Below, piece by piece: positions 1 to 35,030 of a stretch of DNA of 41,687 bases. Each line of letters starts with the position of its first letter. Positions within the stretch are counted from its first letter, which is position 1. The notes below the pieces were generated by a model, which ran no database searches, was not told the DNA's origin, and saw nothing but the letters and a program-made list of their open reading frames with translations. Source of the stretch: an uncultured bacterium. Its GTDB lineage: Bacteria > Verrucomicrobiota > Verrucomicrobiia > Verrucomicrobiales > DEV007. The translations under genes and the position numbers were made by a program. The DNA is taken from assembly GCA_965367965.1 (NCBI GenBank), contig CBDULB010000043.1, positions 1-41,687 of the forward strand, in the 5' to 3' direction.

Positions 1-3000
1 GCTCTCGGTGTAGGGGTTGCCGGCCATGACTACGGCGACCTTTTTGCCGCGCAGGTCGTAGGTGCGCGGCTGGCCCTTGTAAACTCCTTCGATCTTGCGT
101 TGCGCATCGCACAGCGAGATGAACTTCTGCAGGAACTCGGTGTGACAGTGCTGGATGTCGTCGAGGTAGATCATCACGTTGTCACCCATCTCGAGGGACA
201 GGTTGAGCTTGTGAATTTCTTCCCTGGCGCTGGCGTTGGGGGCCTCGTTGGGATCGAGCGATTTGACGTCGTGGCCGAGGGCGGGGCCGTTGATTTTCAT
301 GAAGGTGATGCCGAGCCGGTTGGCGATGTACTCCATCAGGGTGGTCTTGCCGTAGCCGGGCGGGGAGATCAGCAGCAGCATGCCCATGCGGTCGGTGCGG
401 GTGTCGTCGCCGACGGTGCCCATCTGCTTGGCGAGGTTGTCGCCGATGAGCGGCAGGTAGACGCGGTCGATGAGGCGGTTGCGCACGAAGGCGCTCATCA
501 CCTTGGGCTTGAACTCCTCGAGACGCATGCTGTCGCGGGTGGTTTCGACGAGGTGGGATTTGAGCTTGGTGTAGGCCTGGTAGTTGGGGACGGCGTGGTG
601 GAGGAAGGTGCGCAGGCGTTTGCTGAAGTCGAGGTAGTCCAAGACGTACTCTCCTTCTTTGATTTTTGGGTGGATGCCGGTCATGCCTTTGATGGTGACC
701 GTGGTTTCAATCGGGTTGATGGCGGTGAGTTGGATGGGGCCCTGGACGAGGTGGACGGCGGCTTCGGAGAGGTAGCGGGCGGATTCGGTTTGGGGTGAGG
801 TCGGGGTTGAGGGAACCTCAGGAGTGAGGTTCTTCCTTGGGGGATCGTCCACTGATGCAGAGTGCAACTCTGCACCATTTTCTTGATCGTCCACCGGGAC
901 TGGCGGGACGCCAGTATCACGTTTCTGTCCACTGGTCAGGGTGGCTCCGCGGAGCCAGTCGCGGGTGATTTCGAACTGGGCGACGGGGTCGTTTTCGAGG
1001 TCGGCGATGGCGGCCTCGAAGTCGGACTCTTTGCGGCGCATGCTGAGGGTGTGGCGGAACTGCTTGGCCAGTTCGGCGGCCTGGGGGGAGACGGTGAAGG
1101 TGTGGCCGTCGACGATCTCTTCGAACAGATATTCGGCGGCGTGCTGGGCATCGGCGGCGGCGAGTCGGGGGCAGGGGATGGCCCACTTTTGCTGGAAGAT
1201 TTCGATGTGGTGGCGGAGCTCGCCGATGGAGGCGCGCTGCGGATCGTTTTGCTCGCCTTCGGTTTGGAAAATGCCGCGCATGGTGCCGTAGGCGGTGAGC
1301 TTGCGCTCGAGGCGGGTTTTGGTTTCTGTGTCGGTCCAGGATTTCCAGAACAGCAGGGCGAGGGCGCGGTCGTCGGGGGCGTAGCGCAGCAGGCCGATGT
1401 GGGCGTGCATTTTGGCGAGCGGATCGAGGATGCGCAGGGCTTCCTGATCGTGCACGCCTTTGGTGTATCCTTCGGCGTAGCGCGGGGCCATGAAGCGCTG
1501 CACGGCGCTGAGTTTTTCTTCGGCGGGGAAATCTTCGGCCTGCCAGGCTTCGAGATCGGTTTCGAGTTGCGGGTCGTCGCCGCGGACGAGGGCGTGGAGA
1601 ACTTTCCAAGCGAGAAATTCGGCGCGGTAGACTTTGTTGTTTTCGGAAATGACTTCCTGGTCCCAGACGCTTTCGGTGTTGAGGAAGTCGGGATCGGTGA
1701 TCGGCTCGAAGAAATTGGTGCCGGCGAGGTGCAGGCACATAAGGCCATCGTGGGGGACGACGGTGAGCTCGAGGTCCTGGGTGTTGACCGAGAACTGGTG
1801 CGTGCCGAAGCGGACGATGTCTTTGCCGTCGACGAACAGCTCGGTGCGGTCCTTGAGCTGGCGGACGGCGTCTTCGCGAATGCCTTTCAGCTGGGTCTGC
1901 AGGTCGTCGGCCTTGACGCTGTCGCCGAGCTCGGCGAGCTGGGTGATGGTGTCGCGGACTTTTTCGATCATCAGATCGCCGGCCAGGTAGCCGTTGATCT
2001 CGTTGATGGTTTCGAGGCTGTCGACGCGGTGGCGGATGCTGGTGAGGATGCGCTCGGCGCTTTTCATCAGCGCGCCGGTGCGCCGGTTGCGGGCTTCGAC
2101 GAGGCTGAGCTTGCGCGCTTCGAAGGCGTTGTAGATCTCGTCGCGCTTTTCGCCGAGCTGCTCGATGTATTCGTCGAAGTCGGCGAAGCGGCCCTCCAGC
2201 TCCTCGAGCTGGATCATCATCTTGCTGAGGTATTCCTCGCACTTGTCGGGCGAGTCGCACAGGTCGAGGTAGTTGATGACCGCCTGGCTGAGCAGCTTCA
2301 TCTGCGCGCCGAACTGGGCGACGCCTTCGCTGCGGGCGAGCTCGCGGCGGCGGTTTTTGAGCGCGGCGCGGACCTGGTTGAGGGTCGAGTAGATCGTCGA
2401 AATGTCGTCGATGATCTGGGTGGTCTGGGTCGAGTCTTCGATCTTCAGGTTGCCGACGATGTCGATGAGCATTTCGAGCTCGGCGCCGGACTGGTTGAGC
2501 GCTTCTTCGACTGCGTTGGCTTCGGTGACCTTGGAAAGATCGGGAACCAGCTTCTGCTGATCGCTGACCTGGGCGCGGTAGGGATCGAGGGCGTCGGGCT
2601 GGAGCAGGAATTTTACGCAGTTTTCAGAGACCTTGGCGCTGGCATCTTCGACGTCGTCCTCGAGAACCTGCACGGCATCGGTGTCGATGTAGCGCAGGTC
2701 GCGCAGGGAAATGATCTCGCCGCGCACGGTGCGCAGTTCGGCGAGGCTGTGCACGAAGCCCATGATGTCGTCCGGGCGGGTGTTGCGCGCCTTGGTGGCA
2801 AGCTTCTTCGCGCTTTTCGAAACGCGATGCATTTCGTCGGCGGTCGAGCTGCGCAGGCGCACGACCTTGTCGAACTCGGCGATGGCGGAATCGGCGGCGC
2901 CCTTGATTTGCAGCAGCGCGGACTTGAGATCGTAGGTCGCCTGGTCGCCGATCCAGAAGTAGGCGTCGGCGATGTCGCCGGCTTTCTTGGCGAGGTCGAT

Positions 3001-4407
3001 GTAGAGATCGGCGTAGCTGTCGTCCTTGCTGAGCAGCTTGAGCACCTCGTGGCACTCGGCCATGGCGCGGACGATGTCGGCGTTGCCGATCTTGTAGAGC
3101 TGCGAATCGGTGCGCTGGTCGGCGCGGAATTCGCCCTCCATGAACGGCGTCTGCCAGACCTGCAGCGTGTGATGTTTCTGCGGTCGGTCGTCGGCGCGAA
3201 AGTAGATCAGTTCGCCGTCGGGAAATACCGAGTAGCCGTGGCAGGCGATCGGCGTCTCGACTTTCTGATCGATGATGTTGTACGACATCAGCACGTACTT
3301 GCCGGCGTCGCGGTTGTAAAAAATGTAGAGGTGGTCCTCGCCGTTGGGCGAGGGGATGCGCCGTTCGAACACCATGTTGGCGAACTCACCGCCGGAGTCG
3401 AAGATCTTGGTTTCGCCGGTCTGCAGGTGGTAGCCGTCGGAAAAAATGATGCCGTGATCGTCGGGCAGCAGCACGCACGAGTTGGCGATCGAATCGATGC
3501 GGCGAACGCTTTTGGTTTTCTCGTTGAACACCAGGTGGCGGTAATCCTTTTCCTGGTAGGGCAGAATTTTCAGCAGAATCAGGCTGCCGACGATGGCGTA
3601 GAAAATCTCGGCGTCGTCGAGCGTCTGATCGCTGTTGGTGACGTCCTCTTCGTAAATGCCTTCGCCGCTCTCGGTGTTGTCCTCGATCTTGATGGTCAGG
3701 TCGCCACCGACGGTTTCGACGAACAGGCGGTCGTCGATCGATACGTGCGGGTGCATGCCTTCGCGGTACATGCCGCGATGCGCGCGGGTCCATTCGAACT
3801 CCTGTTGCGGGGGAAACAGGTATTCGTGATCAGAGCGGTTGCCGATGTACTGCAGCTGGCCGTCGTTGAGCAGCCATTTAAAAACCTTGATGTCATCGAT
3901 GGCCTTGCCGATGCGGAAGGCCATGTAGAGGTGCGGCCCGATGACCAGGAATTTTACGAAGCGGGTGAGCTTGTAGTACTTGTAAAGGTAGGCGAAGTCT
4001 TCGGCGAAGCTGCCCTGGTGGAGCAGATCGAGCGGCTGCGGGTGAAGAGTGTGGTCGTCGGGGTGGTATTCGTAGACGGAGAGGACGTCGCTCAGTTCGG
4101 TGGTCGACTTCAGGCCGATGTGAACGTTGTAGCCGAAGATGAAGCGGTTTTTGCCAATCGCGATCATGTCGCGTGGCTCGCAGTTGTTCCCGGTCGAAAT
4201 GCGCTCGGTGGCGATCAGTTCGAGGTCGACGGCGCCGAACACTTCCTGGCGTTCGTCGTTGAGCTTGGCGAGGCGGCCGCGCAGGTCCTTGGCGTGCGAC
4301 TCGAGGCGCGCGCGGATGATTTCGTAGGCGCCGCCTTCGAGGCCGCCGGTGTAGGAGGCGGCGGGCGCGTCTTCGAGCGTGGCGGGCGCGTGTGGGTCTT
4401 CGGGCAT
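1..4407 (-). CDS. Giant multidomain P-loop (classical AAA-type) ATPase, >1468 aa. N-terminus at 4407; the C-terminus runs past the window start. Often annotated 'DNA repair ATPase'-like; function unknown.
   Basis: Minus-strand frame 0 is open from the ATG at 4407-4405 to position 1. An in-frame stop lies 18 codons upstream of the ATG (4461-4459). I translated it by hand. Domain order: N-terminal ~500 aa globular region (YEYHPDDHTL..., FYNRDAGKYVLMSYNIIDQKVETPIACHGYSVFPDGELIYF); ~500 aa coiled-coil/helical region; a P/T/S linker (DTGVPPVPVDDQENGAELHSASVDDPPRKNLTPEVPSTPTSPQTES) encoded at ~780-940; then an AAA core with Walker A MLLLISPPGYGKTTLMEYIANRLG (~coords 360-290) and Walker B VMIYLDDIQH ~55 aa later. 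It is missing from the ORF track only because no stop falls inside the window. Confidence 0.75.
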   Translation of the reverse strand, partial: MPEDPHAPATLEDAPAASYTGGLEGGAYEIIRARLESHAKDLRGRLAKLNDERQEVFGAVDLELIATERISTGNNCEPRDMIAIGKNRFIFGYNVHIGLKSTTELSDVLSVYEYHPDDHTLHPQPLDLLHQGSFAEDFAYLYKYYKLTRFVKFLVIGPHLYMAFRIGKAIDDIKVFKWLLNDGQLQYIGNRSDHEYLFPPQQEFEWTRAHRGMYREGMHPHVSIDDRLFVETVGGDLTIKIEDNTESGEGIYEEDVTNSDQTLDDAEIFYAIVGSLILLKILPYQEKDYRHLVFNEKTKSVRRIDSIANSCVLLPDDHGIIFSDGYHLQTGETKIFDSGGEFANMVFERRIPSPNGEDHLYIFYNRDAGKYVLMSYNIIDQKVETPIACHGYSVFPDGELIYFRADDRPQKHHTLQVWQTPFMEGEFRADQRTDSQLYKIGNADIVRAMAECHEVLKLLSKDDSYADLYIDLAKKAGDIADAYFWIGDQATYDLKSALLQIKGAADSAIAEFDKVVRLRSSTADEMHRVSKSAKKLATKARNTRPDDIMGFVHSLAELRTVRGEIISLRDLRYIDTDAVQVLEDDVEDASAKVSENCVKFLLQPDALDPYRAQVSDQQKLVPDLSKVTEANAVEEALNQSGAELEMLIDIVGNLKIEDSTQTTQIIDDISTIYSTLNQVRAALKNRRRELARSEGVAQFGAQMKLLSQAVINYLDLCDSPDKCEEYLSKMMIQLEELEGRFADFDEYIEQLGEKRDEIYNAFEARKLSLVEARNRRTGALMKSAERILTSIRHRVDSLETINEINGYLAGDLMIEKVRDTITQLAELGDSVKADDLQTQLKGIREDAVRQLKDRTELFVDGKDIVRFGTHQFSVNTQDLELTVVPHDGLMCLHLAGTNFFEPITDPDFLNTESVWDQEVISENNKVYRAEFLAWKVLHALVRGDDPQLETDLEAWQAEDFPAEEKLSAVQRFMAPRYAEGYTKGVHDQEALRILDPLAKMHAHIGLLRYAPDDRALALLFWKSWTDTETKTRLERKLTAYGTMRGIFQTEGEQNDPQRASIGELRHHIEIFQQKWAIPCPRLAAADAQHAAEYLFEEIVDGHTFTVSPQAAELAKQFRHTLSMRRKESDFEAAIADLENDPVAQFEITRDWLRGATLTSGQKRDTGVPPVPVDDQENGAELHSASVDDPPRKNLTPEVPSTPTSPQTESARYLSEAAVHLVQGPIQLTAINPIETTVTIKGMTGIHPKIKEGEYVLDYLDFSKRLRTFLHHAVPNYQAYTKLKSHLVETTRDSMRLEEFKPKVMSAFVRNRLIDRVYLPLIGDNLAKQMGTVGDDTRTDRMGMLLLISPPGYGKTTLMEYIANRLGITFMKINGPALGHDVKSLDPNEAPNASAREEIHKLNLSLEMGDNVMIYLDDIQHCHTEFLQKFISLCDAQRKIEGVYKGQPRTYDLRGKKVAVVMAGNPYTES
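885..932. repeat. Copy A of a ~47-nt repeat element (GATCGTCCAC-CGGGACTGGCGGGACGCCAGTATCACGTTTCTGTCCAC). Lies in frame inside the linker-coding region of the giant ATPase gene.
   Basis: About 85-90% identical to copy B at 4493-4539. Contains the hairpin CTGGCG-GGA-CGCCAG (900-914). Preceded by a second GATCGTCCAC (843-852) and the palindrome TGCAGAGTGCAACTCTGCA (856-874). Confidence 0.7.
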
Positions 4408-4427
4408 GGTGTTTGGCGCGCGGCGTT

Positions 4428-4464
4428 GCGGTTAGCTTTTCGCGATTAGCGATTAGCGGTTAGT
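4428..4464. repeat. Tandem heptamers (G/A)TTAGC(G/T): CGGTTAG, then CGATTAG CGATTAG CGGTTAG. They sit 25-60 nt upstream of the ATPase start codon.
   Basis: Read directly from the sequence: gcggttagcttttcgcgattagcgattagcggttagttttt. The same heptamer class recurs at 10189-10209. Confidence 0.7.
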
Positions 4465-4492
4465 TTTTCGTCCAGAGGGTAGCGGGTTGAGT

Positions 4493-4539
4493 CTCGTCCA
4501 CGGGGACCGGCGGGACGCCGGTATCACGTTTTCGTCCAG
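4493..4539. repeat. Copy B of the ~47-nt repeat element, in the leader/promoter region of the ATPase gene.
   Basis: CTCGTCCAC-GGGGACCGGCGGGACGCCGGTATCACGTTTTCGTCCAG. Its hairpin CCGGCG-GGA-CGCCGG (4507-4521) differs from copy A by the paired change T..A to C..G, which keeps the stem. Flanked by the direct repeat TTTTCGTCCAGAGGG at 4465-4479 and 4529-4543. Other hairpins nearby: GGACAAGCG-GGC-CGCTTGTCC (4574-4594), and CCCTACCG...CGGTAGGG (4593-4626). Confidence 0.7.
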
Positions 4540-4825
4540 AGGGAAGGGGGGGCGGGAGTCGCTCGACGTTCGCGGACAAGCGGGCCGCTTGTCCCTACCG
4601 GGAGTGGTCTGGGTAATTCGGTAGGGACGATCCGGCCCGGTCGTCCGTTGAGCGTTGCGTGGGTTGTCTGGGTGAAAGATGATCATCGGTGATTCTGCGT
4701 TCGTCGCCAGGGAGCTGATAGCTAAACGCCGCGACCATCGGGAGCGAAGAGATCGCCGGTCCAACGGCTGCCAGCTCGAAGGCTGACAGCCGGGGATCGT
4801 GCGAAGTGAGCTTCCCCCCGAAAAC

Positions 4826-6868
4826 TCACTTTGCAGTCAGTCGTTTCAGCGCCTTGCCTGCGTTCTCGCCGGCGAAGCCGAAGCGTTCGGCGGCGTTGAG
4901 CAGGCTGGTCATGCTGGTTCTGGTTTTTTCGTCCTTGGCCTCACCGACCAGTCTACCGAGCAGGGCGGAGATGGACAGGTTTTTCAGGTCTTCGCTGGAG
5001 ACACCGAACTGATCGATCCAGCCGGCGATCTGCGATTTGAAATACTCGGGGTCGCCGTTGAAGAAGGTCTCCTTGACGTCGCTGAGCGTTTCGCTGCTGT
5101 GGACCATGCGGTCGACAGCTTTGCCGGCGGTGGCCGCCTGGGTGATCTTCTCGAAGAAGTTGGTGTCGCCTCCGATGATGTCGATGTTGGAGCTCTTCAG
5201 CGCCTCGGCAACGATCTCGGAGTGTTTGCCGGCGATGTCGGCCTGGACGCGGATCTCGGCCAGTTCGACGGCTTGTTCCTTGTTGAGTTCGAGTTTGAAC
5301 TCTTCGTGTTCGCGTCCGACTTCGTCGAACTTCTTCATCGCATCGGCCTTGGCATTGATACCGTCGGCTTCGGCGGTGGCTTTGGCGCGAACGACGTCGG
5401 CCTGACCGAGTCCGGCGGCTGCGGTCTCGGCGGTGACACCGGCGGCGAGAGTCTTCTTGGCGGCAGAGATTTTCTCTGACGACGTCTGCTCGGCTTCGGC
5501 GGCGATGACGACCTCTTCGGCGTGCAGCTCGGCGGCCTGGCGATTGGCTTCGGCCATTTTGACCACTTCGTAGAGTTCCTGGTCGGCCTTGATCTGTGCG
5601 GCTTCGCGGCCGGCTTCGGCTTCTTTGATCTTGATGATCAGTTGTTCCTCGGCGGCTTTTTCAGCGAGCGTCACCGCGACGCTCTTCTCGCGCTCGGCAC
5701 CGGCGAAAGCTTCGGTATCGAGAATCTTCTGTTGTTCCTCGACCACAGTTTTTTCGACCATGACGCGTTCTTTGATGACGTCCTGAATTTCCTTTTTCTC
5801 GACCTCGACGGCCTTCTCTTTCTCGATGTCTTTGAGCGTGGTGACGCGCTCGCGGTCGATGGCTTCGAGTTCGCGGTCGCGTTTGACGCGCTCCTGTTCG
5901 ACGCCATCGGTGCGCTCCTTGTTGCGCTCGGCGACGATCACTTCGCGATCTTTGTTCTGAGTCGCAATCTGCACCTCCTCTTCGGTGGCGATGCGGGCGC
6001 GCTCGGACTTGAGCAGTTCCTCCTGGCGGATCTTCTCGGTCTCGGCGGTTTCGCGGGCCTGCACGCTTTCGACTTCGCGCTTCTGCTTGGCCTCGGTCTC
6101 GGCGAGCTGGCGCTCCAGCTCGAGAATCGCTTCGCGGGCTTCGACGTCCTGCTGCTTGATGACCTTTTCTTTGTCGCGCTGGATGTTGTTGGCCAGCTTC
6201 GCCTGGGTGGCGGTCAGTTCGGTGATCTTTTTGATACCCTCGGAGTCGAGGATGTTGTCCGGGTCCATCGACTCGAGCGGGGTCTGCTCGAGGTAGTCAA
6301 TGGCCGCGTCTTCCAGCGAGAAACCATTCAGATCGGTGCCGATCAGTTTGATGATTTCATCGCGAAAGGTGTCGCGCTCTTCGTAAAGTTCGATGAAGTC
6401 GAAACGCTTACCGATGGTCTTCAGGGCCTCGGAGAATTTCGCATCGAACAGGGCTTCGATTTCGGCCAGTGACGAGGCGCGTTCGCAGCCGATGGCGTTG
6501 GCGACGCGAATCACATCTTCGACGGTAGGATTGACCCGCACGAAAAAGGCGACCTTGATGTCGGCGCGCATGTTGTCTTTGCAGATCAAGCCGTTGCTGC
6601 CGGTGCGGTCGACCTCGATGCGTTTCACCGACAGGTCCATTTCCTCGACCCGGTGAATGACCGGGTAGACGGCGATGCCATCGAAGGCGACTTTGGTCTC
6701 GCCGAGACCGGTGCGCACCAGTGCGGTGCCTTTTTTGACCTTGCGAAAGAAGGCGGCGAACAGGGCGAGCAGTGCCAGGACGAGCACCAGCAGGCCACCC
6801 AGGCCCATGGCGAGCAAGGCGACCCCTGACGGGATGTCCGCGAGTAGTAGTGTATTCATATCAGGCAT
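4826..6868 (-). CDS. Flotillin family protein (SPFH/band-7 domain with a long E/K/A-rich coiled coil), 680 aa.
   Basis: N-terminal TM segment, then an SPFH-like segment (GIAVYPVIHRVEEMDLSVKRIEVDRTGSNGLICKDNMRADIKVAFFVRVNP), then an E/K/R/A heptad-rich region typical of bacterial flotillins (YuaG/FloT, YqiK). Partnered with an nfeD gene 5 nt upstream. Confidence 0.8.
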   Translation of the reverse strand: MPDMNTLLLADIPSGVALLAMGLGGLLVLVLALLALFAAFFRKVKKGTALVRTGLGETKVAFDGIAVYPVIHRVEEMDLSVKRIEVDRTGSNGLICKDNMRADIKVAFFVRVNPTVEDVIRVANAIGCERASSLAEIEALFDAKFSEALKTIGKRFDFIELYEERDTFRDEIIKLIGTDLNGFSLEDAAIDYLEQTPLESMDPDNILDSEGIKKITELTATQAKLANNIQRDKEKVIKQQDVEAREAILELERQLAETEAKQKREVESVQARETAETEKIRQEELLKSERARIATEEEVQIATQNKDREVIVAERNKERTDGVEQERVKRDRELEAIDRERVTTLKDIEKEKAVEVEKKEIQDVIKERVMVEKTVVEEQQKILDTEAFAGAEREKSVAVTLAEKAAEEQLIIKIKEAEAGREAAQIKADQELYEVVKMAEANRQAAELHAEEVVIAAEAEQTSSEKISAAKKTLAAGVTAETAAAGLGQADVVRAKATAEADGINAKADAMKKFDEVGREHEEFKLELNKEQAVELAEIRVQADIAGKHSEIVAEALKSSNIDIIGGDTNFFEKITQAATAGKAVDRMVHSSETLSDVKETFFNGDPEYFKSQIAGWIDQFGVSSEDLKNLSISALLGRLVGEAKDEKTRTSMTSLLNAAERFGFAGENAGKALKRLTAK

Positions 6869-6873
6869 GGTTT

Positions 6874-7617
6874 TCAGGTTGATTGGTTGGAGGTTTCATT
6901 GGAAATGGGGCGCGCGATGTGCAGGTCGCGCGTGTCGTCTTTGGCGACGATGAGGACTTCGGTGCCGCGCGGCACCGGGTCGCAGCCTTCGGAAAGACGG
7001 GCATTGATAAGCAGCGACGCACCCTTTTCGATGACTTCGATCTGGCCGTAATCTGCGGTCAGCTGCGCGGAGCGAACCGTGCCGCTCTGGCCGGTTAAGG
7101 GTTTGTGCACCTCGTTGTTGCGCATCATTTTCATCAATGGGCGCAGCGGCCGGATCGTCAGTTTGGTGAGAACGAAGGCGCTGACGGCAACGCCGACCAG
7201 CAGCAGGTTGGCGCGGGAAGTCGACTCGGCATCATTGAGGTAAAGATTGGCCGCGATGTTGCCGCACCACAGGAAAAGCACGAATACGGACATTACGAAG
7301 GTGAACGGCGCGTCGCCGACACCGAGGAATTGCATCACTGCGTGAAAGGCATTTCCGGAGCTGCTGTCGGCGTCGCCGTGCATATCGCCATCGCCGGCGT
7401 CCGCCACATCTCCCGTGTCGCCGAGGTCACCGTCGTGACCGCCGCCGATGTCGTGACCGTCGGCGCCGTCTATGCCGTCAAAGCCCATGACGCCATCGAT
7501 GGTGTCGTGATCGATCAGGCCGAACATGGCGATCACCCAGTAGACAGCGATCAGCCCCAATAGAATCGTCAGCGGCAGATTGAAACCTTTGAGGGCTTCC
7601 TGGAAAATTTCAGTCAT
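6874..7617 (-). CDS. NfeD-family membrane protein (YuaF/YqiJ-like) with a C-terminal OB-fold. Carries an Asp/Gly/His-rich low-complexity insertion.
   Basis: N-terminal TM helices. C-terminal beta-rich segment TGQSGTVRSAQLTADYGQIEVIEKGASLLINARLSEG...PRGTEVLIVAKDD, typical of short NfeD homologs that precede flotillin genes. Insert DGVMGFDGIDGADGHDIGGGHDGDLGDTGDVADAGDGDMHGDADSSS at ~7335-7512. Confidence 0.65.
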   Translation of the reverse strand: MTEIFQEALKGFNLPLTILLGLIAVYWVIAMFGLIDHDTIDGVMGFDGIDGADGHDIGGGHDGDLGDTGDVADAGDGDMHGDADSSSGNAFHAVMQFLGVGDAPFTFVMSVFVLFLWCGNIAANLYLNDAESTSRANLLLVGVAVSAFVLTKLTIRPLRPLMKMMRNNEVHKPLTGQSGTVRSAQLTADYGQIEVIEKGASLLINARLSEGCDPVPRGTEVLIVAKDDTRDLHIARPISNETSNQST

Positions 7618-7707
7618 GGCGTGGAGGGTCCTCAGGGTTCGTCTTCAGTGTGTGGATTCTGCTCCGTTCCGGCAAGGGTGAAGCGATTCGCATTGGTTAA
7701 CTTTTTT

Positions 7708-7786
7708 CCGAAGCCTTTCGGGTGTGATGCCTATTTTACGAAGAAAGTCACTTTCGCCCATTACAATGCGGCGAAAGGATTGTAAC
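7708..7786. promoter_or_regulatory. Three palindromes in the divergent nfeD / HTH-gene intergenic region; candidate operator sites.
   Basis: CCGAA-GCCT-TTCGG (7708-7721), GAAAGT-C-ACTTTC (7744-7756), TTACAAT-N11-ATTGTAA (7762-7786). The motif GATCGTCCACCG (7831-7842) lies just downstream. Confidence 0.4.
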
Positions 7787-7919
7787 GCCGTCGGCGTGTG
7801 ACTCGTTCTTTGTGCTCAGTTCTTTGCTGGATCGTCCACCGTTCAGCTCATGAGGTGGAAATGCCTCGCTGCTTTTTCGTGGCTTGTTTTCCCTCAAGGC
7901 CTACGCCAGACTGCGGACC

Positions 7920-8396
7920 ATGGAATCGCATGAGGTCATCAAAGAAGCCTTCGAAAAAACCAGTCCCAAGCTGGTCGCTTCGGAAATGGGCTTGTCGCTG
8001 TCGCTGGTTTATAAATGGGCACAGGCAAATACCGAGACCGGCTCGGGCAGTCGCAATCCTCTCGACCGGGTCGCCAAACTGATCGAATTGACCACAGACA
8101 CTCATCTGATCGAATGGCTTTGTCAGCAGGCCGGCGGTTACTTTGTTAAGAACCCGCAGAGCAGTTGCGAAAAGGGCTACGAAGTGGTGCCGGCGACGCA
8201 CGAGATTGTGCAGCAGTTCGCCAGTTTGTTGACGGTGATCTCGCAGGCGGCGGTCGACAATGAAATCACTGACGATGAGTCGGAAGAGATTCGCGACTGC
8301 TGGGACGAGTTAAAAGCCTACGCCGAAGGTTTTGTGCGCTGCTGTGAGGAAGGCGACTTTCAGCAGATCAAGCGTGGCCTCGGCGCGCGCAAGTGA
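7920..8396 (+). CDS. Small helix-turn-helix regulatory protein (phage CII / Cro-like HTH flavour), 158 aa.
   Basis: ATG at 7920 in context accATGg. The track start at 7884 is a TTG. HTH-like segment SPKLVASEMGLSLSLVYKWAQ. Acidic, Cys-containing C-terminus (DDESEEIRDCWDELKAYAEGFVRCCEEGD). Confidence 0.5.
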   Translation: MESHEVIKEAFEKTSPKLVASEMGLSLSLVYKWAQANTETGSGSRNPLDRVAKLIELTTDTHLIEWLCQQAGGYFVKNPQSSCEKGYEVVPATHEIVQQFASLLTVISQAAVDNEITDDESEEIRDCWDELKAYAEGFVRCCEEGDFQQIKRGLGARK

Positions 8397-8519: not shown

Positions 8520-9146
8520 ATGGCTGACGACCCCGACATTCCCACCGATTCCCTTTCGCTGCGCCTGGCTGCGGCCAACGGCTTGATCCGCCGCCGGCGC
8601 ACCATCAAGCCCGACAAGATGAGCGACAAGCCGATCGAGAAGCTGCATCTCGCATCGATCCTGGAAAATGCCAACTGGGCGCCGACGCACGGCAAAACTG
8701 AGCCCTGGCGGTTTACGATTTTCACCGAAGACGCCCGCGAAACGCTGGGTGATGCGATGCAGGAAATCTATCTCGACATCACCCCGGGCGATGGCTTTCG
8801 CGCTGACAAATACGATAAGCTGGCGCGCAATCCGATGGCGGCACCGGTGATCATTTCGATTGGTATGAAACGCCAGGACAGCGAGAAGATTTCCGAGACC
8901 GACGAGCTCGCCGCCGTTGCCTGTGCCGTCCAGAATATGCACCTGACGGCATCGGCGATCGGTCTGGCCGGCTTCTGGTCGTCGCCGCCGGTGTGCGATA
9001 CGCCGGAGATGTTGAAATTTCTCGAGCTCGATCCCAAGCGCGACCGTTGCCTCGGCCTGTTTTACCTTGGCTGGCCCGCGGATGAAGACGACTGGCCGGA
9101 AGGTCAGCGCGGCAATCTGGCGGACAAAGTGGTATGGAGGCACTGA
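8520..9146 (+). CDS. Nitroreductase family protein (~208 aa).
   Basis: Fits the nitroreductase / NADH-dehydrogenase fold family (RRRRTIKPDKMSDKPIEKLHLASILENANWAPTHGKTEPWRFTIF...AVQNMHLTASAIGLAGFWSS). ATG at 8520. The track start at 8472 is a TTG. Confidence 0.65.
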   Translation: MADDPDIPTDSLSLRLAAANGLIRRRRTIKPDKMSDKPIEKLHLASILENANWAPTHGKTEPWRFTIFTEDARETLGDAMQEIYLDITPGDGFRADKYDKLARNPMAAPVIISIGMKRQDSEKISETDELAAVACAVQNMHLTASAIGLAGFWSSPPVCDTPEMLKFLELDPKRDRCLGLFYLGWPADEDDWPEGQRGNLADKVVWRH

Positions 9147-9661
9147 CGACAGCGCTCAGCGACGGCACGATCTACACCCTGAAAGTCAGCTGCGTGTGGT
9201 TGTTCATCGTCGGTGGCTTCATCGGCACCTTTCTGCCGGTGGTGCCCGGCACGGTGTTCATTTTTCTCGGCTGCCTGGCGCACTACGTTTTCTTCGGCTA
9301 CGAGGAGAGCGCGATCTCGTGGACGGGCCTGGTCGCCATCGCGTTGCTGCTGATTCTGTCGCTGGTGGTTGACTGGGCGGGCGGTGCGGTCGGCGCCAAA
9401 TATTATGGAGCCAGCCGATGGGGCATCGTCGGTGCGCTGGTCGGTGGACTGGTCGGTATTTTCTTTCCCTTTCCCGGACTGATCATCGGCCCGCTGATCG
9501 GCGCTTTCGCGTTCGAGATGGCCTTCGCCAAAAAGAAAATCAAGCCGGCCGGCAAGTCGACTTGGGGAACATTTCTCGGCAGTGTCGGCGGACTGGTGGC
9601 GAAAGTCGTGGTCGCCCTGGCCATGGTCGTCTGGTTCGTTGTCGACCTGATGCTCGGCTAG
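9134..9661 (+). CDS. DUF456-like small membrane protein (4 TM helices, Gly-rich).
   Basis: Highly hydrophobic protein with GxxxG-rich helices. Its start overlaps the nitroreductase stop by 13 nt (ATGGAGGCACTGA), which implies translational coupling. Confidence 0.55.
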   Translation: MEALTTALSDGTIYTLKVSCVWLFIVGGFIGTFLPVVPGTVFIFLGCLAHYVFFGYEESAISWTGLVAIALLLILSLVVDWAGGAVGAKYYGASRWGIVGALVGGLVGIFFPFPGLIIGPLIGAFAFEMAFAKKKIKPAGKSTWGTFLGSVGGLVAKVVVALAMVVWFVVDLMLG

Positions 9662-9743
9662 GCGCTGGCGCGCCGTTCTTTGGGCGTGGTTCTTTGTTCG
9701 TTGTTGCTTGCTTGCGCTTCGGGCGCGGAAGCCGTAATCTCCA

Positions 9744-10165
9744 GACGGAACGGGCCGGAGAAGATCGCTGTTTTCCCTGCATCTTCGGATGTGGGCGAGC
9801 TCAGAGGAAAGTCCGGACACCGCAAGGCAGCATCGCCGTGCGAAAGCGCGGGACGCGGAGGGCGCAAGCCACCGTGGACGGATAGTGTCGCAGAAAATAA
9901 ACTACCCCCGCCACTTCGGTGGCGACGGGAAAAGGTGAAACGGCGAGGTAAAAGCTCACCGCCCCGAGGGTAACCGAGGGGGCACGACAAACCCCGTGCG
10001 GTGCAAGACATAACAGAGCAAACGGGCCGCCTGCCCGGCTTCGCAGATTCCTTCGGGAGTCGGCGGAATGTGTTCGGGTAATAGTCGCACTAGATAAATG
10101 ATCTTCCTGTCAGGCCCCCGGGCCGAAGCAGAACAAAATCCGGCTTATTTCGGCCCGTTCCACCT
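9744..10165 (+). ncRNA. rnpB: RNase P RNA, bacterial type A (rnpB), ~420 nt.
   Basis: Conserved motifs read off the sequence: GAGGAAAGTCCGGACACC (P4 5' strand, 9804-), AGTGTCGCAGAAAATAAACTACCCCC, AAAGGTGAAACGGCGAGGTAAAAGCTCACCG (P10-P12 region), ACAGAACAAAATCCGGCTTAT (P4 3' strand). P1 pairs GGAACGGGCCG (9747-9757) with CGGCCCGTTCC (10151-10161). No long ORF is credible here. Confidence 0.9.
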
Positions 10166-19962: not shown

Positions 19963-20507
19963 CGATGATCGTCAGCTTCCGTTCGTGTTCGCGCAGATCC
20001 AAGATGACGTATGGATCAGTACCGCAGGGAGCGGTCTGGATAGTCGGCAGATTTTTCCCAAGGGGGTCAAGGTAGTCGGCACAAAAAGTGGGCTGAAGGC
20101 CCACCAGCACAAAGCCCATGGCCTTCAGGCCCGGGTAAGCGTTGCCTGGATTTTACCGCTCTGACGGGGCGGCAGCAGATGGCTCAATTGTCGTTGAGCT
20201 AACGTTCGATGGCGAATCTTCAGGCTGCACATTTGCGATCCGATTTTACCCGGCCGTGAACGGCTGGGTGTTGTGCTTTCGGGCTCTCAGCCCGTTAAGC
20301 CACTGCCTACCTTGATGCCAATGGTATCTATCCCCGCGATGACCTCTGCCGTGAGGATGCAGATTCATTGCGTGCTGAGAATGTGGATTGAAACTCGCGT
20401 CTGCCGGGACGGGTCGCTACGCGTCAGTTTAGACCTGGCTGAACGCTAGCGGCATTACGGAACAGCGCAGGCTTGGCGGTGATCGATAGCATCGCTAAAA
20501 AGCGGGT

Positions 20508-25547: not shown

Positions 25548-26609
25548 CTACGATCTCTCGCGGCCGATCACATCCTTGCGCAGATTGCGCGCCGTGGTCA
25601 GCCCGCCCCAATCGGCACCGCGCATCGGCCGGGCACCGGACTGACGTCGCTCGCTGAATTGCTCGCGAAATTGTTCAAAGACACCGTCGACAAACCCGGC
25701 GTGCCCAAAAGCTGTGCCATCACAAAAGTAACGAACCCTGGAACGCATCAGCACGTGGACCGGCAGCCGACCTTTTTCATCCGCAATCACTCGCTCGACC
25801 GCCTGTGCATCGATGCCTGCCCGCGCGCCCGCGTGGCCACTGCGTGGATCGCCGGTGCGCCTCTCCCCGTGACCGAACAAGTGCATCCGATACGCAGGAC
25901 CGACTTCGCGCCAACTCGCCGATCGACCGTCCCAGGCTCGTGTCCGGGCATGCATTCGGGAAAGATTCCGCCGCGCCAACCTGCCGCCCGCCACCGCCTC
26001 CGCGTAACCGCACCACCGATAATCCTTCGGGTCACTGACGACGCCCGCCCGCACCGGGTTTAACTCAATATAGGCCGCCATGGTCATCAGAGCGTGTTCG
26101 TCCGCTTCGACGACGACACTCTTGAAGCGTCCCTCCCATAGCGTGCCCGAGCGATCATTGCGGGCATTGTACCAAAGGGTGAAGCGCGCCTTCAGCTCCT
26201 TGCAAAACACCGACAGATCGCCCATCCGCGCCTGATACCGCCTCAGGACTTCAGCCAACCAGATTGGTGACCCCGTCGAGCTCTGCGCATCGGCGACCGC
26301 CCGATCCAGTTCATCCACGACCAGCGCCAGTGCGTCGCCCTGATAAAGCTCAGCCAACTTGCTGCGCAGAGAATCAGCAGTCAGCGGCGCAATTGTTTCA
26401 GGGTCCGGGACCTCGAGGAGAAGATGAAAGTGATTCGACATCAGGCAATAGGTCAGCACCCGAACCTCCAAAAACGCCTCCAATCGTCGAATCATCGATC
26501 GAAACACCTCTTTCTCCACCGGCCCGAACACAAAATTGCGGTCCACCACCCGCGACACCGCATGATAGGCCCCTCCGCGAGGGAGTATAATGCGCTGCTG
26601 CTTCCCCAT
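25548..26609 (-). CDS. IS200-like / REP-associated Y1 (HuH) tyrosine transposase, long form (~353 aa).
   Basis: HuH motif CLMSNHFHLLLEV. C-terminal catalytic region GTLWEGRFKSVVVEADEHALMTMAAYIELNPVRAGVV, which is the LWQxRF...YIxxNPV signature of the Y1_Tnp/RAYT family. The track ORF starts at 26840. I chose ATG 26609 (MGKQQRIILPRG). Confidence 0.7.
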   Translation of the reverse strand: MGKQQRIILPRGGAYHAVSRVVDRNFVFGPVEKEVFRSMIRRLEAFLEVRVLTYCLMSNHFHLLLEVPDPETIAPLTADSLRSKLAELYQGDALALVVDELDRAVADAQSSTGSPIWLAEVLRRYQARMGDLSVFCKELKARFTLWYNARNDRSGTLWEGRFKSVVVEADEHALMTMAAYIELNPVRAGVVSDPKDYRWCGYAEAVAGGRLARRNLSRMHARTRAWDGRSASWREVGPAYRMHLFGHGERRTGDPRSGHAGARAGIDAQAVERVIADEKGRLPVHVLMRSRVRYFCDGTAFGHAGFVDGVFEQFREQFSERRQSGARPMRGADWGGLTTARNLRKDVIGRERS

Positions 26610-26640
26610 CGTAACCACAGTCTGCCACCCACAACCAACA

Positions 26641-26658
26641 CCGCAAGTAAATATAAGC
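26641..26658. repeat. Left copy of a perfect 18-bp inverted repeat (CCGCAAGTAAATATAAGC).
   Basis: Exact reverse complement of 34959-34976. AT-rich against the GC-rich background. Followed by the hairpin CTGCA-TATTC-TGCAG. Lies 32 nt upstream of the Y1 transposase start. Confidence 0.8.
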
Positions 26659-26821
26659 TGCATATTCTGCAGTTCTTTTACTGAGAGTAGGTGAGTGGTG
26701 CCTGTGTCGGTCGGATTGGGAGTCGACGTTAAGGCGGGCCGGGGTTGTTTGGGGCGAGCGGGGGGGGGAGCCGGGAGCCTGCGGCCCGACCCGCAGGCCG
26801 CGGGGTGGGATGGCGTTGACG

Positions 26822-34797: not shown

Positions 34798-34958
34798 CGC
34801 GGAGCAAAGTTTCTACCGCGGGATCGGTTGTGTCAAACGAAGTGTGCAGAGCGCTCTCCTGGTGGTAGCGAAACTCAGCGGGAGGGATCAGGCGGCTCGG
34901 TTAGCAGCCGCGTTCAGTTCAGAGCTGTTCAAAGCTCTTATCAGTGTAGATATAAGCC

Positions 34959-34976
34959 GCTTATATTTACTTGCGG
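34959..34976. repeat. Right copy of the perfect 18-bp inverted repeat (GCTTATATTTACTTGCGG).
   Basis: Exact reverse complement of 26641-26658. Overlaps the local palindrome ATATAAGC-C-GCTTATAT (34951-34967). Confidence 0.8.
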
Positions 34977-35030
34977 TTAAAAGCGGCAAACAAATATCCG
35001 CTTCGCAAAACTGTGCCGCTCATCGCGGAA

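Follow-up and report, generated by a model that had tools for sequence, protein, structure and literature searches.

The window examined here, which is positions 1-41,687 (41,687 nucleotides, nt) of contig CBDULB010000043.1 (assembly GCA_965367965.1) of an uncultured member of the Verrucomicrobiales, begins inside a gene for a large ATPase with DUF3686 (residues 41-484), DUF7902 (residues 605-689) and AAA (residues 1344-1419) domains, the relatives of which are 'DNA repair ATPases' of Verrucomicrobiales. Upstream of the ATPase gene lies a 418-nt spacer (4408-4825) that follows a gene encoding a 680-residue flotillin-like protein. The gene and the spacer each hold one of two similar segments: copy A occupies codons ~1159-1175 of the ATPase gene (SGQKRDTGVPPVPVDDQ), in frame when read on the minus strand, as a preliminary description of this DNA had proposed, and copy B is intergenic, 86-135 nt upstream of the ATG. 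Both segments are very probably units of an interspersed repeat of the type represented by repetitive extragenic palindromic (REP) sequences and REP doublets forming hairpins (REPINs). The features concerned are listed in Table 1, with the orientation of units given on the plus strand of the window.

The cores of copy A (887-932) and copy B (4494-4539) are identical at 40 of 46 positions (87%), in agreement with the 85-90% reported for them initially, and a longer pairing of 887-944 with 4494-4551 (direct-repeat family D15) has 83% identity across 58 nt. The core pattern GGCGGGACGCCNGTATCACGTTT (22 bases), with up to 3 mismatches allowed, has exactly two matches in the window, where 0.00 were expected from 100 shuffles. 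Copy A was matched by the nhmmer profile of the family with 48.9 bits (E 7.8e-14) and by its covariance model with 67.9 bits (E 5.5e-16), and copy B with 53.9 and 74.3 bits (E 1.2e-17 for the latter); chance resemblance of the two copies is excluded by the shuffles and the profile matches. The hairpin of copy A (ACTGGCG-GGA-CGCCAGT) and that of copy B (ACCGGCG-GGA-CGCCGGT) are each one A-T pair longer than first described, with a 7-bp stem and a 3-nt loop, and both are present in the centroid folds of both strands. The stems differ in a single pair, at which T/C on one arm and A/G on the other are compensatory. The CGTCCA(C/G) words that had been seen to bound the copies correspond to a unit-boundary box, TCGTCCA, which occurs at the six places given in Table 1, all on the plus strand, and is degenerate at the far end of copy A. 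Related words pointed out at 843-852 and 7831-7842 likewise have a place in this scheme: the former (GATCGTCCAC) is the closing box of a second linker unit, U2, and the latter contains a lone box at the position aligned with a filled site in a sister genome. Copy B is unchanged across three strain-level contigs except for one box substitution (locus L003). No evidence was found for the suggestion that these direct repeats drive deletion or rearrangement of the intervening 3.6 kb, the longest exact runs common to copies A and B being 11 nt.

A flank-anchored pattern, in which the flanks and loop were fixed and the five inner stem pairs were free (written on the opposite strand as GTGANACNNNNNTCCNNNNNGTCCN{3,4}TGGACGA), was used to scan one genome per species of the GTDB database. 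It gave 15 matches on 12 contigs of a single metagenome-assembled genome (MAG) of the Verrucomicrobiales (JBBKXR01), plus three unrelated matches. The same pattern found four true further copies and nine unrelated matches in Joint Genome Institute (JGI) metagenomes, and no copy in viral contigs. The sister genome (locus L007) has three copies in 25 kb, one in the ATPase linker and two intergenic. The family thus defined by pattern has at least 24 members, and by model ~35; nhmmer found 35 copies in all fetched DNA and 30 copies in ~94 kb of repeat-selected loci. With further copies in the sister genome, the MAG and metagenome contigs, the expectation of a repeat family was borne out, and the family was found in a narrow clade of uncultured Verrucomicrobiales.

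On the plus strand, a unit consists of the TCGTCCA box, a C(G/T)GGGA head, a 6-7-bp GC-rich stem with a GGA loop, and TATCAC-N4 leading to the next box; on the opposite strand it reads TGGACGA, GTGA(T/A)A, a 6-7-bp GC stem with a TCC loop, a C-rich tail, and TGGACGA. The box-to-box spacing is 38-39 nt, and the boundary 7-mer is identical at essentially all copies. The head has the variants AAGGGGA and AGGGGGA, with GTGA or GTAA on the far side of the stem. Units occur singly, as inverted doublets with partners 10-60 nt apart (L017 3243-3392, L021 1849-1943, L020 6824-6969; further doublets in L009 6398-6563, L027 889-990 and L034 987-1098), and in a tandem head-to-tail array of ~10 units (L015 517-887) with one box per junction. 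A CRISPR-like array (clustered regularly interspaced short palindromic repeats) was considered for L015 and rejected, the units being contiguous without spacers. In L007, and in the linker of the window, a first unit is followed by a second of the same layout with a different stem; in the window the box-to-box distance of this second unit, U2, is 42 nt, and it encodes ...QENGAELHSASVDD. By crude gene calls, ~12 of roughly 15 sites are intergenic, mostly between co-directional genes and in either orientation relative to them. The copies at L007 5768-5853 sit in a divergent promoter region, upstream of a gene for a CII-like regulator. This site (box-U1-box-U2-box at 5769-5851) is filled in L007, and the aligned intergenic position beside the CII-like gene of the window has one box; on comparison of the two sequences, the pair shows gain or loss of units in register with the box.

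The hairpin was conserved throughout the family. Full pairing (6/6 stem positions) was found in 22 of the 24 flank-defined members, whereas 12 chance flank matches pair at no more than 4/6 positions. When 30 copies were aligned and a covariance model was built from the copies, as the preliminary description had advised, the stem proved conserved, with 96% of stem cells paired; in slid registers pairing falls to 17-56%. Two of seven pairs covary (pair 2 is C-G in 14 copies, U-A in 9 and A-U in 2; pair 4 is G-C in 26 and C-G in 4), and none of 500 shuffles reaches the observed covariation score. The second-unit variants have wholly different stems that are fully paired. Both of the positions that covary between copies A and B are third codon positions in the ATPase frame (ACT/ACC for Thr, CCA/CCG for Pro); since both changes are synonymous, this pair of copies alone cannot separate structure from synonymous drift or coding, and it is the family-wide data that do so. 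The hairpin is kept as a structure by compensatory change, with the loop and flanks constant.

When 60 orthologues were aligned, the ATPase linker, which is bordered by the conserved blocks '...DW(L/I)xG' and 'EAAVHL', differed in length by up to ~75 residues. The predicted linker peptide of the window ATPase is SGQKRDTGVPPVPVDDQENGAELHSASVDD, and the TGVPPVPVD motif was found only in the window and in orthologues P0001 (99% identity) and P0002 (91%), being absent from the 58 orthologues at ≤68% identity; as had been anticipated, copy A is an insertion relative to these 58. P0002, encoded at L007 on a 2.4-Mb contig of the European Nucleotide Archive (ENA), has the element at the same place in the linker. 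The ATPase genes of the window and L007 are 92.7% identical in DNA overall, and their linkers differ by whole-unit events: the first unit (U1) is kept; in U2, 10 of 16 stem bases differ (~1.2 expected), with five of eight pairs changed on both sides and all eight intact; a 45-nt segment with a third hairpin (U3) is present only in the window, and a separate 33-nt segment only in L007. From this comparison, unit turnover resembles replacement or conversion more than point substitution. The unit consensus, read directly, has no stop codons in five of six frames, which, together with the little constraint on the linker, means that in-frame insertion is easily tolerated. The linker peptide is a by-product of the DNA repeat and not a selected feature. 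The 67%-identical ATPase orthologue of L037 has a REP of a different family in frame in the same linker (7959-7999; GCGGGCG-GGA-CGCCCGC-ACTCCCAG; APGRAGRPHSQS), which suggests that the linker has been repeatedly colonised by REPs.

A second host protein is the class A penicillin-binding protein (PBP) of the MAG (L010 1901-4516), which has transglycosylase, transpeptidase and PBP C-terminal domains. Three copies lie in its open frame, at approximately residues 10-25, 540-556 and 703-718, and they are read in two different frames. The middle copy falls within the transpeptidase domain, in a loop that varies, and another is in an interdomain linker. The N-terminal copy may lie upstream of the true start codon, so that the number of in-frame copies in this protein is two or three.

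At three loci, L036, L037 and L038, where the ATPases are 63-67% identical to that of the window, precisely the spacer that separates the flotillin-like gene from the ATPase gene is occupied by an orthologous gene for a REP-associated tyrosine transposase (RAYT). The RAYTs of L036 and L037 are 63% identical to each other and score 78.7 and 79.7 bits against NF047646 (NCBIfam REP_Tyr_transpos; cutoff 80); a search with a profile of the RAYT alignment gave 7902 hits and revealed the third syntenic RAYT, that of L038, whereas none of the top hits fell on the contig of L007 or on a contig identifiable as part of the MAG. The RAYT genes of these loci are flanked by inverted REPs, such as CCCACCGGGAC-CGCGGGCG-TCT-CGCCCGC in L038 and CACTGGGAGC-GCGGGCG-TCC-CGCCCGC in L036, to be compared with GTCCACCGGGAC-TGGCG-GGA-CGCCA in copy A. 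The ten-base head CCACCGGGAC of copy A is identical to that of L038, the 11-mer hairpin core GGCGTCCCGCC of copies A and B is common to the flanking REPs of L036 and L038, and the head of the family resembles CTGGGAGC and CCACCGGGAC of the RAYT-flanking REPs in the three loci. As judged from these likenesses, the family is related to the REPs that flank RAYTs at the same locus in relatives. The syntenic RAYT may reflect vertical inheritance of a single-copy RAYT gene, or the spacer may be a preferred home of Y1 transposases. In the window, the spacer contains no transposase gene; what it has instead is copy B together with a partial unit, the composite hairpin at 4574-4646 and a run of heptamers.

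The gene order around this spacer is kept in the window (4826-8396) and in L001-L007, L037 and L038: a divergent CII-like helix-turn-helix (HTH) gene, a gene for a 229-285-residue protein without Pfam match, a gene for a 674-686-residue flotillin-like protein (with a Band_7 domain in L037), and the DUF3686 ATPase gene. This conservation suggests that the genes form one functional module. Elsewhere in the window (25551-26609, minus strand) there is a gene for a RAYT-like protein of 353 residues, with the HUH motif NHFHLLL, the sequence YIELNPVRAG, an internal insertion and a long C-terminal extension; it matches Y1_Tnp of Pfam (E 1e-8) and scores 57 bits against NF047646, below the cutoff of 80. 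Approximately 30 nt upstream of the start of this gene is one arm of a 26-nt AT-rich inverted repeat (26640-26665 and 34952-34977, 92% complementary; ...TTATATTTACTTGCGGT), the other arm being 8.3 kb away; the repeat may be a shared promoter or regulatory word.

The constraint on the repeat is most simply explained if the hairpin is recognised as such on single-stranded DNA. A Y1 (HUH) tyrosine transposase of the RAYT type, acting in trans, would recognise the hairpin in this form, and by analogy with known REP systems such a transposase might have mobilised the family, a proposal to which we give about an even chance. Slippage or recombination at the 7-nt box would also lengthen and shorten the arrays. 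On this view copy B would be an ordinary intergenic copy in the spacer between the flotillin-like and ATPase genes, and copy A would open an array of two to three units that had inserted into, and would be translated within, an interdomain linker of hypervariable length.

Several observations weigh against assignment of the family to REPs and its mobilisation by a RAYT. The head is C(G/T)GGGA, not the GTAG of REP and REPIN sequences, and when the tag criterion of PMC3733652 was applied, neither GTAG nor CGTC was found directly next to the stem, CGTC being confined to the box, at a distance of 7 nt from the stem. The loop, relative to the head, is the complement of the loop in the RAYT-flanking REPs of the relatives. 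In the tandem array, pair 2 is a C.A mismatch in five units. The only strong covariance-model matches in the 41.7-kb window are copies A and B, and the copy counts for the MAG, which bear on the abundance of the repeat, were drawn from loci picked for containing it. No copies adjoin the RAYT-like gene of the window, and tblastn searches of all fetched loci with the Y1 protein of L007, the RAYT-like protein of the window and the RAYTs of L036 and L037 found no Y1 or RAYT gene next to copies of the family. No remnant of a RAYT pseudogene was found in the copy B spacer of the window or in the L007 spacer, which has an IS200-type Y1 gene flanked by different hairpins. The mobility of the repeat is, moreover, something that we infer from genome comparisons. 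The hairpins of the L007 spacer belong to another repeat family, in which direct and inverted copies of a ~90-nt cluster of three hairpins (GATGCT-GAA-AGCATC, CCCCGGATT-TCA-AATCCGGGG and GYGTCC-TGAA-GGGACRC) flank the Y1 gene at 9100-9200 and 9680-9910.

The preliminary description had proposed selection on structure, acting either on RNA or on a protein-bound palindrome; the structure has been upheld, and a hairpin of single-stranded DNA is now favoured over RNA and over a palindrome read as duplex DNA. As an RNA-level element acting in cis, the repeat would be a stabiliser against 3'-5' exonuclease, a ribonuclease (RNase) processing site or an attenuator that acts between cistrons on transcription or translation, and copy B would regulate expression of the ATPase from its leader. 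Most intergenic copies lie between co-directional genes and are probably transcribed, and the same pattern has elsewhere been taken to favour functions of REPs in RNA (PMC3733652). The leader (4400-4830) has an RNA fold far better than those of shuffled sequences (z = -4.8), and the C.A mismatches of the array become G.U on the opposite strand. Nevertheless, an RNA-level element is quite unlikely. Copies occur in both orientations relative to genes, which argues against a strand-specific role, and some are in a divergent promoter region. In single-copy units the changes run from C-G to T-A to A-T and from G-C to C-G, and no G.U intermediate is seen. With its end 86 nt before the ATG, copy B does not reach any ribosome-binding site. 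No match for the repeat was found in Rfam 15 at gathering score, nor anything meaningful in 700-5000 at E up to 1, and a promoter and terminator scan of the ATPase leader found nothing; an intrinsic terminator was rejected for want of a T run. An RNA element would also leave the tandem arrays and the unit-scale turnover inside a coding region unexplained. It is the occurrence in either orientation, together with the related REPs that flank RAYT genes, that favours a constraint at the level of DNA, as a single-strand hairpin, over a function in RNA. Individual copies, copy B included, may have incidental effects as RNA.

The interpretation of copy A as a small insertion tolerated in a linker stands, whereas the accompanying comparison to a miniature inverted-repeat transposable element (MITE) does not, the unit being REP/REPIN-like. 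A conventional MITE moved by a DDE-type transposase, with TCGTCCA as target-site duplications, would account for the same 7-nt word bounding each unit, and the one word of the empty site and three words of the filled site with two units conform to the arithmetic of insertion and duplication. Target duplications vary from site to site, however, whereas this word is constant at essentially all copies, and the head-to-tail arrays have one box per junction. The unit is just 38-39 nt long and lacks terminal inverted repeats other than its central hairpin, and its relatives flank Y1/RAYT genes, not genes for DDE transposases. A conventional MITE is therefore highly improbable. Hardly any credence can be given to a double-stranded DNA site (an operator, an iteron or a site for a nucleoid protein) bound by a dimeric protein: the palindrome is short and perfect, its flanks are constant, and some copies are in the promoter region at L007 5768-5853, but the stem bases change identity with complementarity kept, which argues against a protein that reads the duplex, the second-unit variants differ over the entire stem, conservation includes the asymmetric 3-nt loop, and copies are found inside coding regions and in arrays of ten.

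The notion of a protein-level repeat, SGxKRDTGVPPVPVD, with copy B as an upstream open reading frame (ORF) or a fragment of an ATPase pseudogene, may be all but set aside: copy B in the register of copy A does read SGRKRDTGVPPVPVDET within a 44-codon open stretch, and three A/B differences, both stem changes included, are synonymous in that frame, but the pattern arises because of where the stem falls in the codons, the frame of copy B differs from that of the ATPase and opens only with a possible TTG, the same DNA lies between genes in both orientations, the PBP reads the unit in a different frame (PLDGNVIPASRRSKLDD versus SGRIDDTGVPQV), and a search with the peptides of the five open frames gave only three short ORFs without domains, at least two of which read across REP arrays. 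In that search short matches cannot reach significance among 5.8 billion sequences, and the number of decorated proteins cannot be read from it. For copy B, programmed frameshifting and an upstream ORF were also considered, and rejected for lack of support.

Other features were noted beside the copies. In the ATPase leader, the second palindrome of the composite hairpin at 4574-4646 is a weak match to the covariance model (12.7 bits, E 0.14). Runs of the heptamers GATTAGC/GGTTAGC adjoin REP copies in three loci (window 4430-4465, L012 5511-5531, L014 ~94-121), and strain-level contigs vary in the leader run by an indel of 14 nt, or two units, which sets L006 apart from the window, L003 and L005. 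The window (20056-20334), L013 (6090-6294), L014 (7039-7315) and L015 (275-483) also contain a second interspersed element, ~200-280 nt long and with 72-76% identity between copies; it lies within ~150 nt of REP copies in L013 and L015, and has no Rfam match at gathering score. The ends of this element pair over ~25 nt (GGGCTGAAGGCCCACCAGCACAAAG and CTTTGTGCTGTCGGGCTTTCAGCCC), as in a MITE-like element or a structured RNA. The sole Rfam match at gathering score in the window is a bacterial RNase P RNA of class A (9749-10163, 183.7 bits).

Table 1. Features of the repeat, its host gene and the flotillin-ATPase spacer (window coordinates unless a locus is named).
Feature	Position	Strand	Description
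DUF3686/DUF7902/AAA 'DNA repair ATPase' gene	1-4407	-	ATG at 4407; N-terminal 1469 codons; runs off the left end of the window
Repeat-derived in-frame part of ATPase linker	790-933	-	~48 codons; lower bound approximate
Third linker hairpin (U3)	814-831	+	AACCTCA-GGAG-TGAGGTT; no terminal box; family membership uncertain
REP unit U2 (linker)	845-893	+	Box 845-851; hairpin TGCAGAGT-GCA-ACTCTGCA 856-874; box 887-893; from centroid folds and box-hairpin-box scan
REP unit U1 (copy A)	885-935	+	Box TCGTCCA 887-893; head CCGGGA; hairpin 899-915; tail TATCAC; degenerate next box CTGTCCA 925-931
Partial unit adjoining copy B	4468-4500	+	Box (4468-4474); 19 nt without hairpin; box
REP unit, copy B	4492-4542	+	Box 4494-4500; head CGGGGA; hairpin 4506-4522; tail TATCAC; box 4532-4538
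REPIN-like composite hairpin in ATPase leader	4574-4646	.	Palindromes GGACGACCGGGCCGGATCGTCC and GGACAAGCGGCCCGCTTGTCC, also pairing with each other
Solitary TCGTCCA box ('empty site')	7832-7838	+	Aligned with the filled site of L007
Syntenic RAYT genes	L036 711-1352; L037 3712-4467; L038 7001-7912		Compare window 4408-4825 and L007 9214-9666

REPs, REPINs and RAYTs have been well described, for example in Pseudomonas and Escherichia coli (PMC3116915, PMC3337134, PMC5581495). The present family resembles them in its ~38-nt unit, which combines an imperfect, GC-rich palindrome with an unpaired head that is conserved, in its occurrence as singletons, inverted doublets and clusters that are mostly intergenic among the sites counted and limited to a narrow lineage, and in its likeness to REPs of three relatives that have this hairpin core and head and lie on both sides of a RAYT gene at one syntenic position. 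It differs from them, apart from the sequence of the head, in its extra conserved 7-nt boundary box and its direct tandem arrays of 38-39-nt period. No published description of the family itself was found, but REPs in frame have been reported before. Di Nocera et al. (2013) found REPs wholly inside real ORFs, most numerously in Opitutus terrae (Verrucomicrobia) and Rickettsia conorii, often with two insertions per gene and with clusters encoding 43-82 residues; many of the host genes function in DNA repair, and one O. terrae family has GTGG, a degenerate form of the GTAG head (PMC3733652). The present family shares with the O. terrae REPs the phylum, in-frame insertion, often more than one insertion per gene, and clusters encoding tens of residues, but it belongs to another order (Verrucomicrobiales) and has another unit sequence, the comparison being one of descriptions and not of consensus sequences.

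Rickettsia palindromic elements (RPEs) are likewise palindromes in frame in genes, translated, at tolerated positions, and absent from orthologues, as are the copies in the ATPase linker and the L010 PBP. RPEs are mostly longer, at ~100-150 nt for RPE-1. Their hosts are AT-rich obligate intracellular Alphaproteobacteria, and the phylum, GC content and unit length all differ; membership among the RPEs is not claimed, and the family is set apart from them by description. Where RPEs are tagged the tag is CGTC, and they have no associated transposase (PMC3733652). Enterobacterial bacterial interspersed mosaic elements (BIMEs) are similar in being clusters of several REP units with variant stems between the genes of operons. 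In BIMEs the REP units alternate in orientation and are accompanied by defined linker motifs and by sites for integration host factor (IHF) and gyrase. The arrays of the present family, unlike BIMEs, are head-to-tail with a common box and have no known sites for proteins. MITEs such as the Correia elements (PMC10969869) are also small, non-autonomous and interspersed in or next to genes, and can alter their products or expression, but the terminal inverted repeats, variable target-site duplications and origin from DDE-type insertion sequences (IS) that characterise MITEs were not seen in the family.

These results add a clearly delimited REP family from an uncultured clade of Verrucomicrobiales, with evidence that is unusually clean in having a negative control for the hairpin, a pair of filled and empty sites, unit-scale turnover in a translated linker, and a second host protein, the PBP. 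For annotation, the linker peptide and the open frame of 40-44 codons in the leader are by-products of a DNA repeat, and short ORFs called across such REP arrays are spurious. The repeat is also a likely break point of assemblies in this lineage. The RAYT gene is conserved beside the DUF3686 ATPase gene in relatives but absent in the lineage of the window, where REPs persist, which makes this a tractable case of a REP population after the transposase locus has been lost or replaced. The replacement of U2, the gain or loss of a unit and of the 33-nt segment, and the different REP in the same linker of L037 would accord with a further reading, speculative and rather unlikely, in which the linker array is an actively turning-over module and RAYT-type activity or templated conversion rewrites a translated segment of an expressed gene. 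If this were true, then with the RAYT position upstream of the ATPase in three lineages it would amount to local, transposase-driven diversification of a protein linker, and this hairpin-preserving turnover of a translated segment beside a conserved RAYT locus is the point that could raise the significance of the family.

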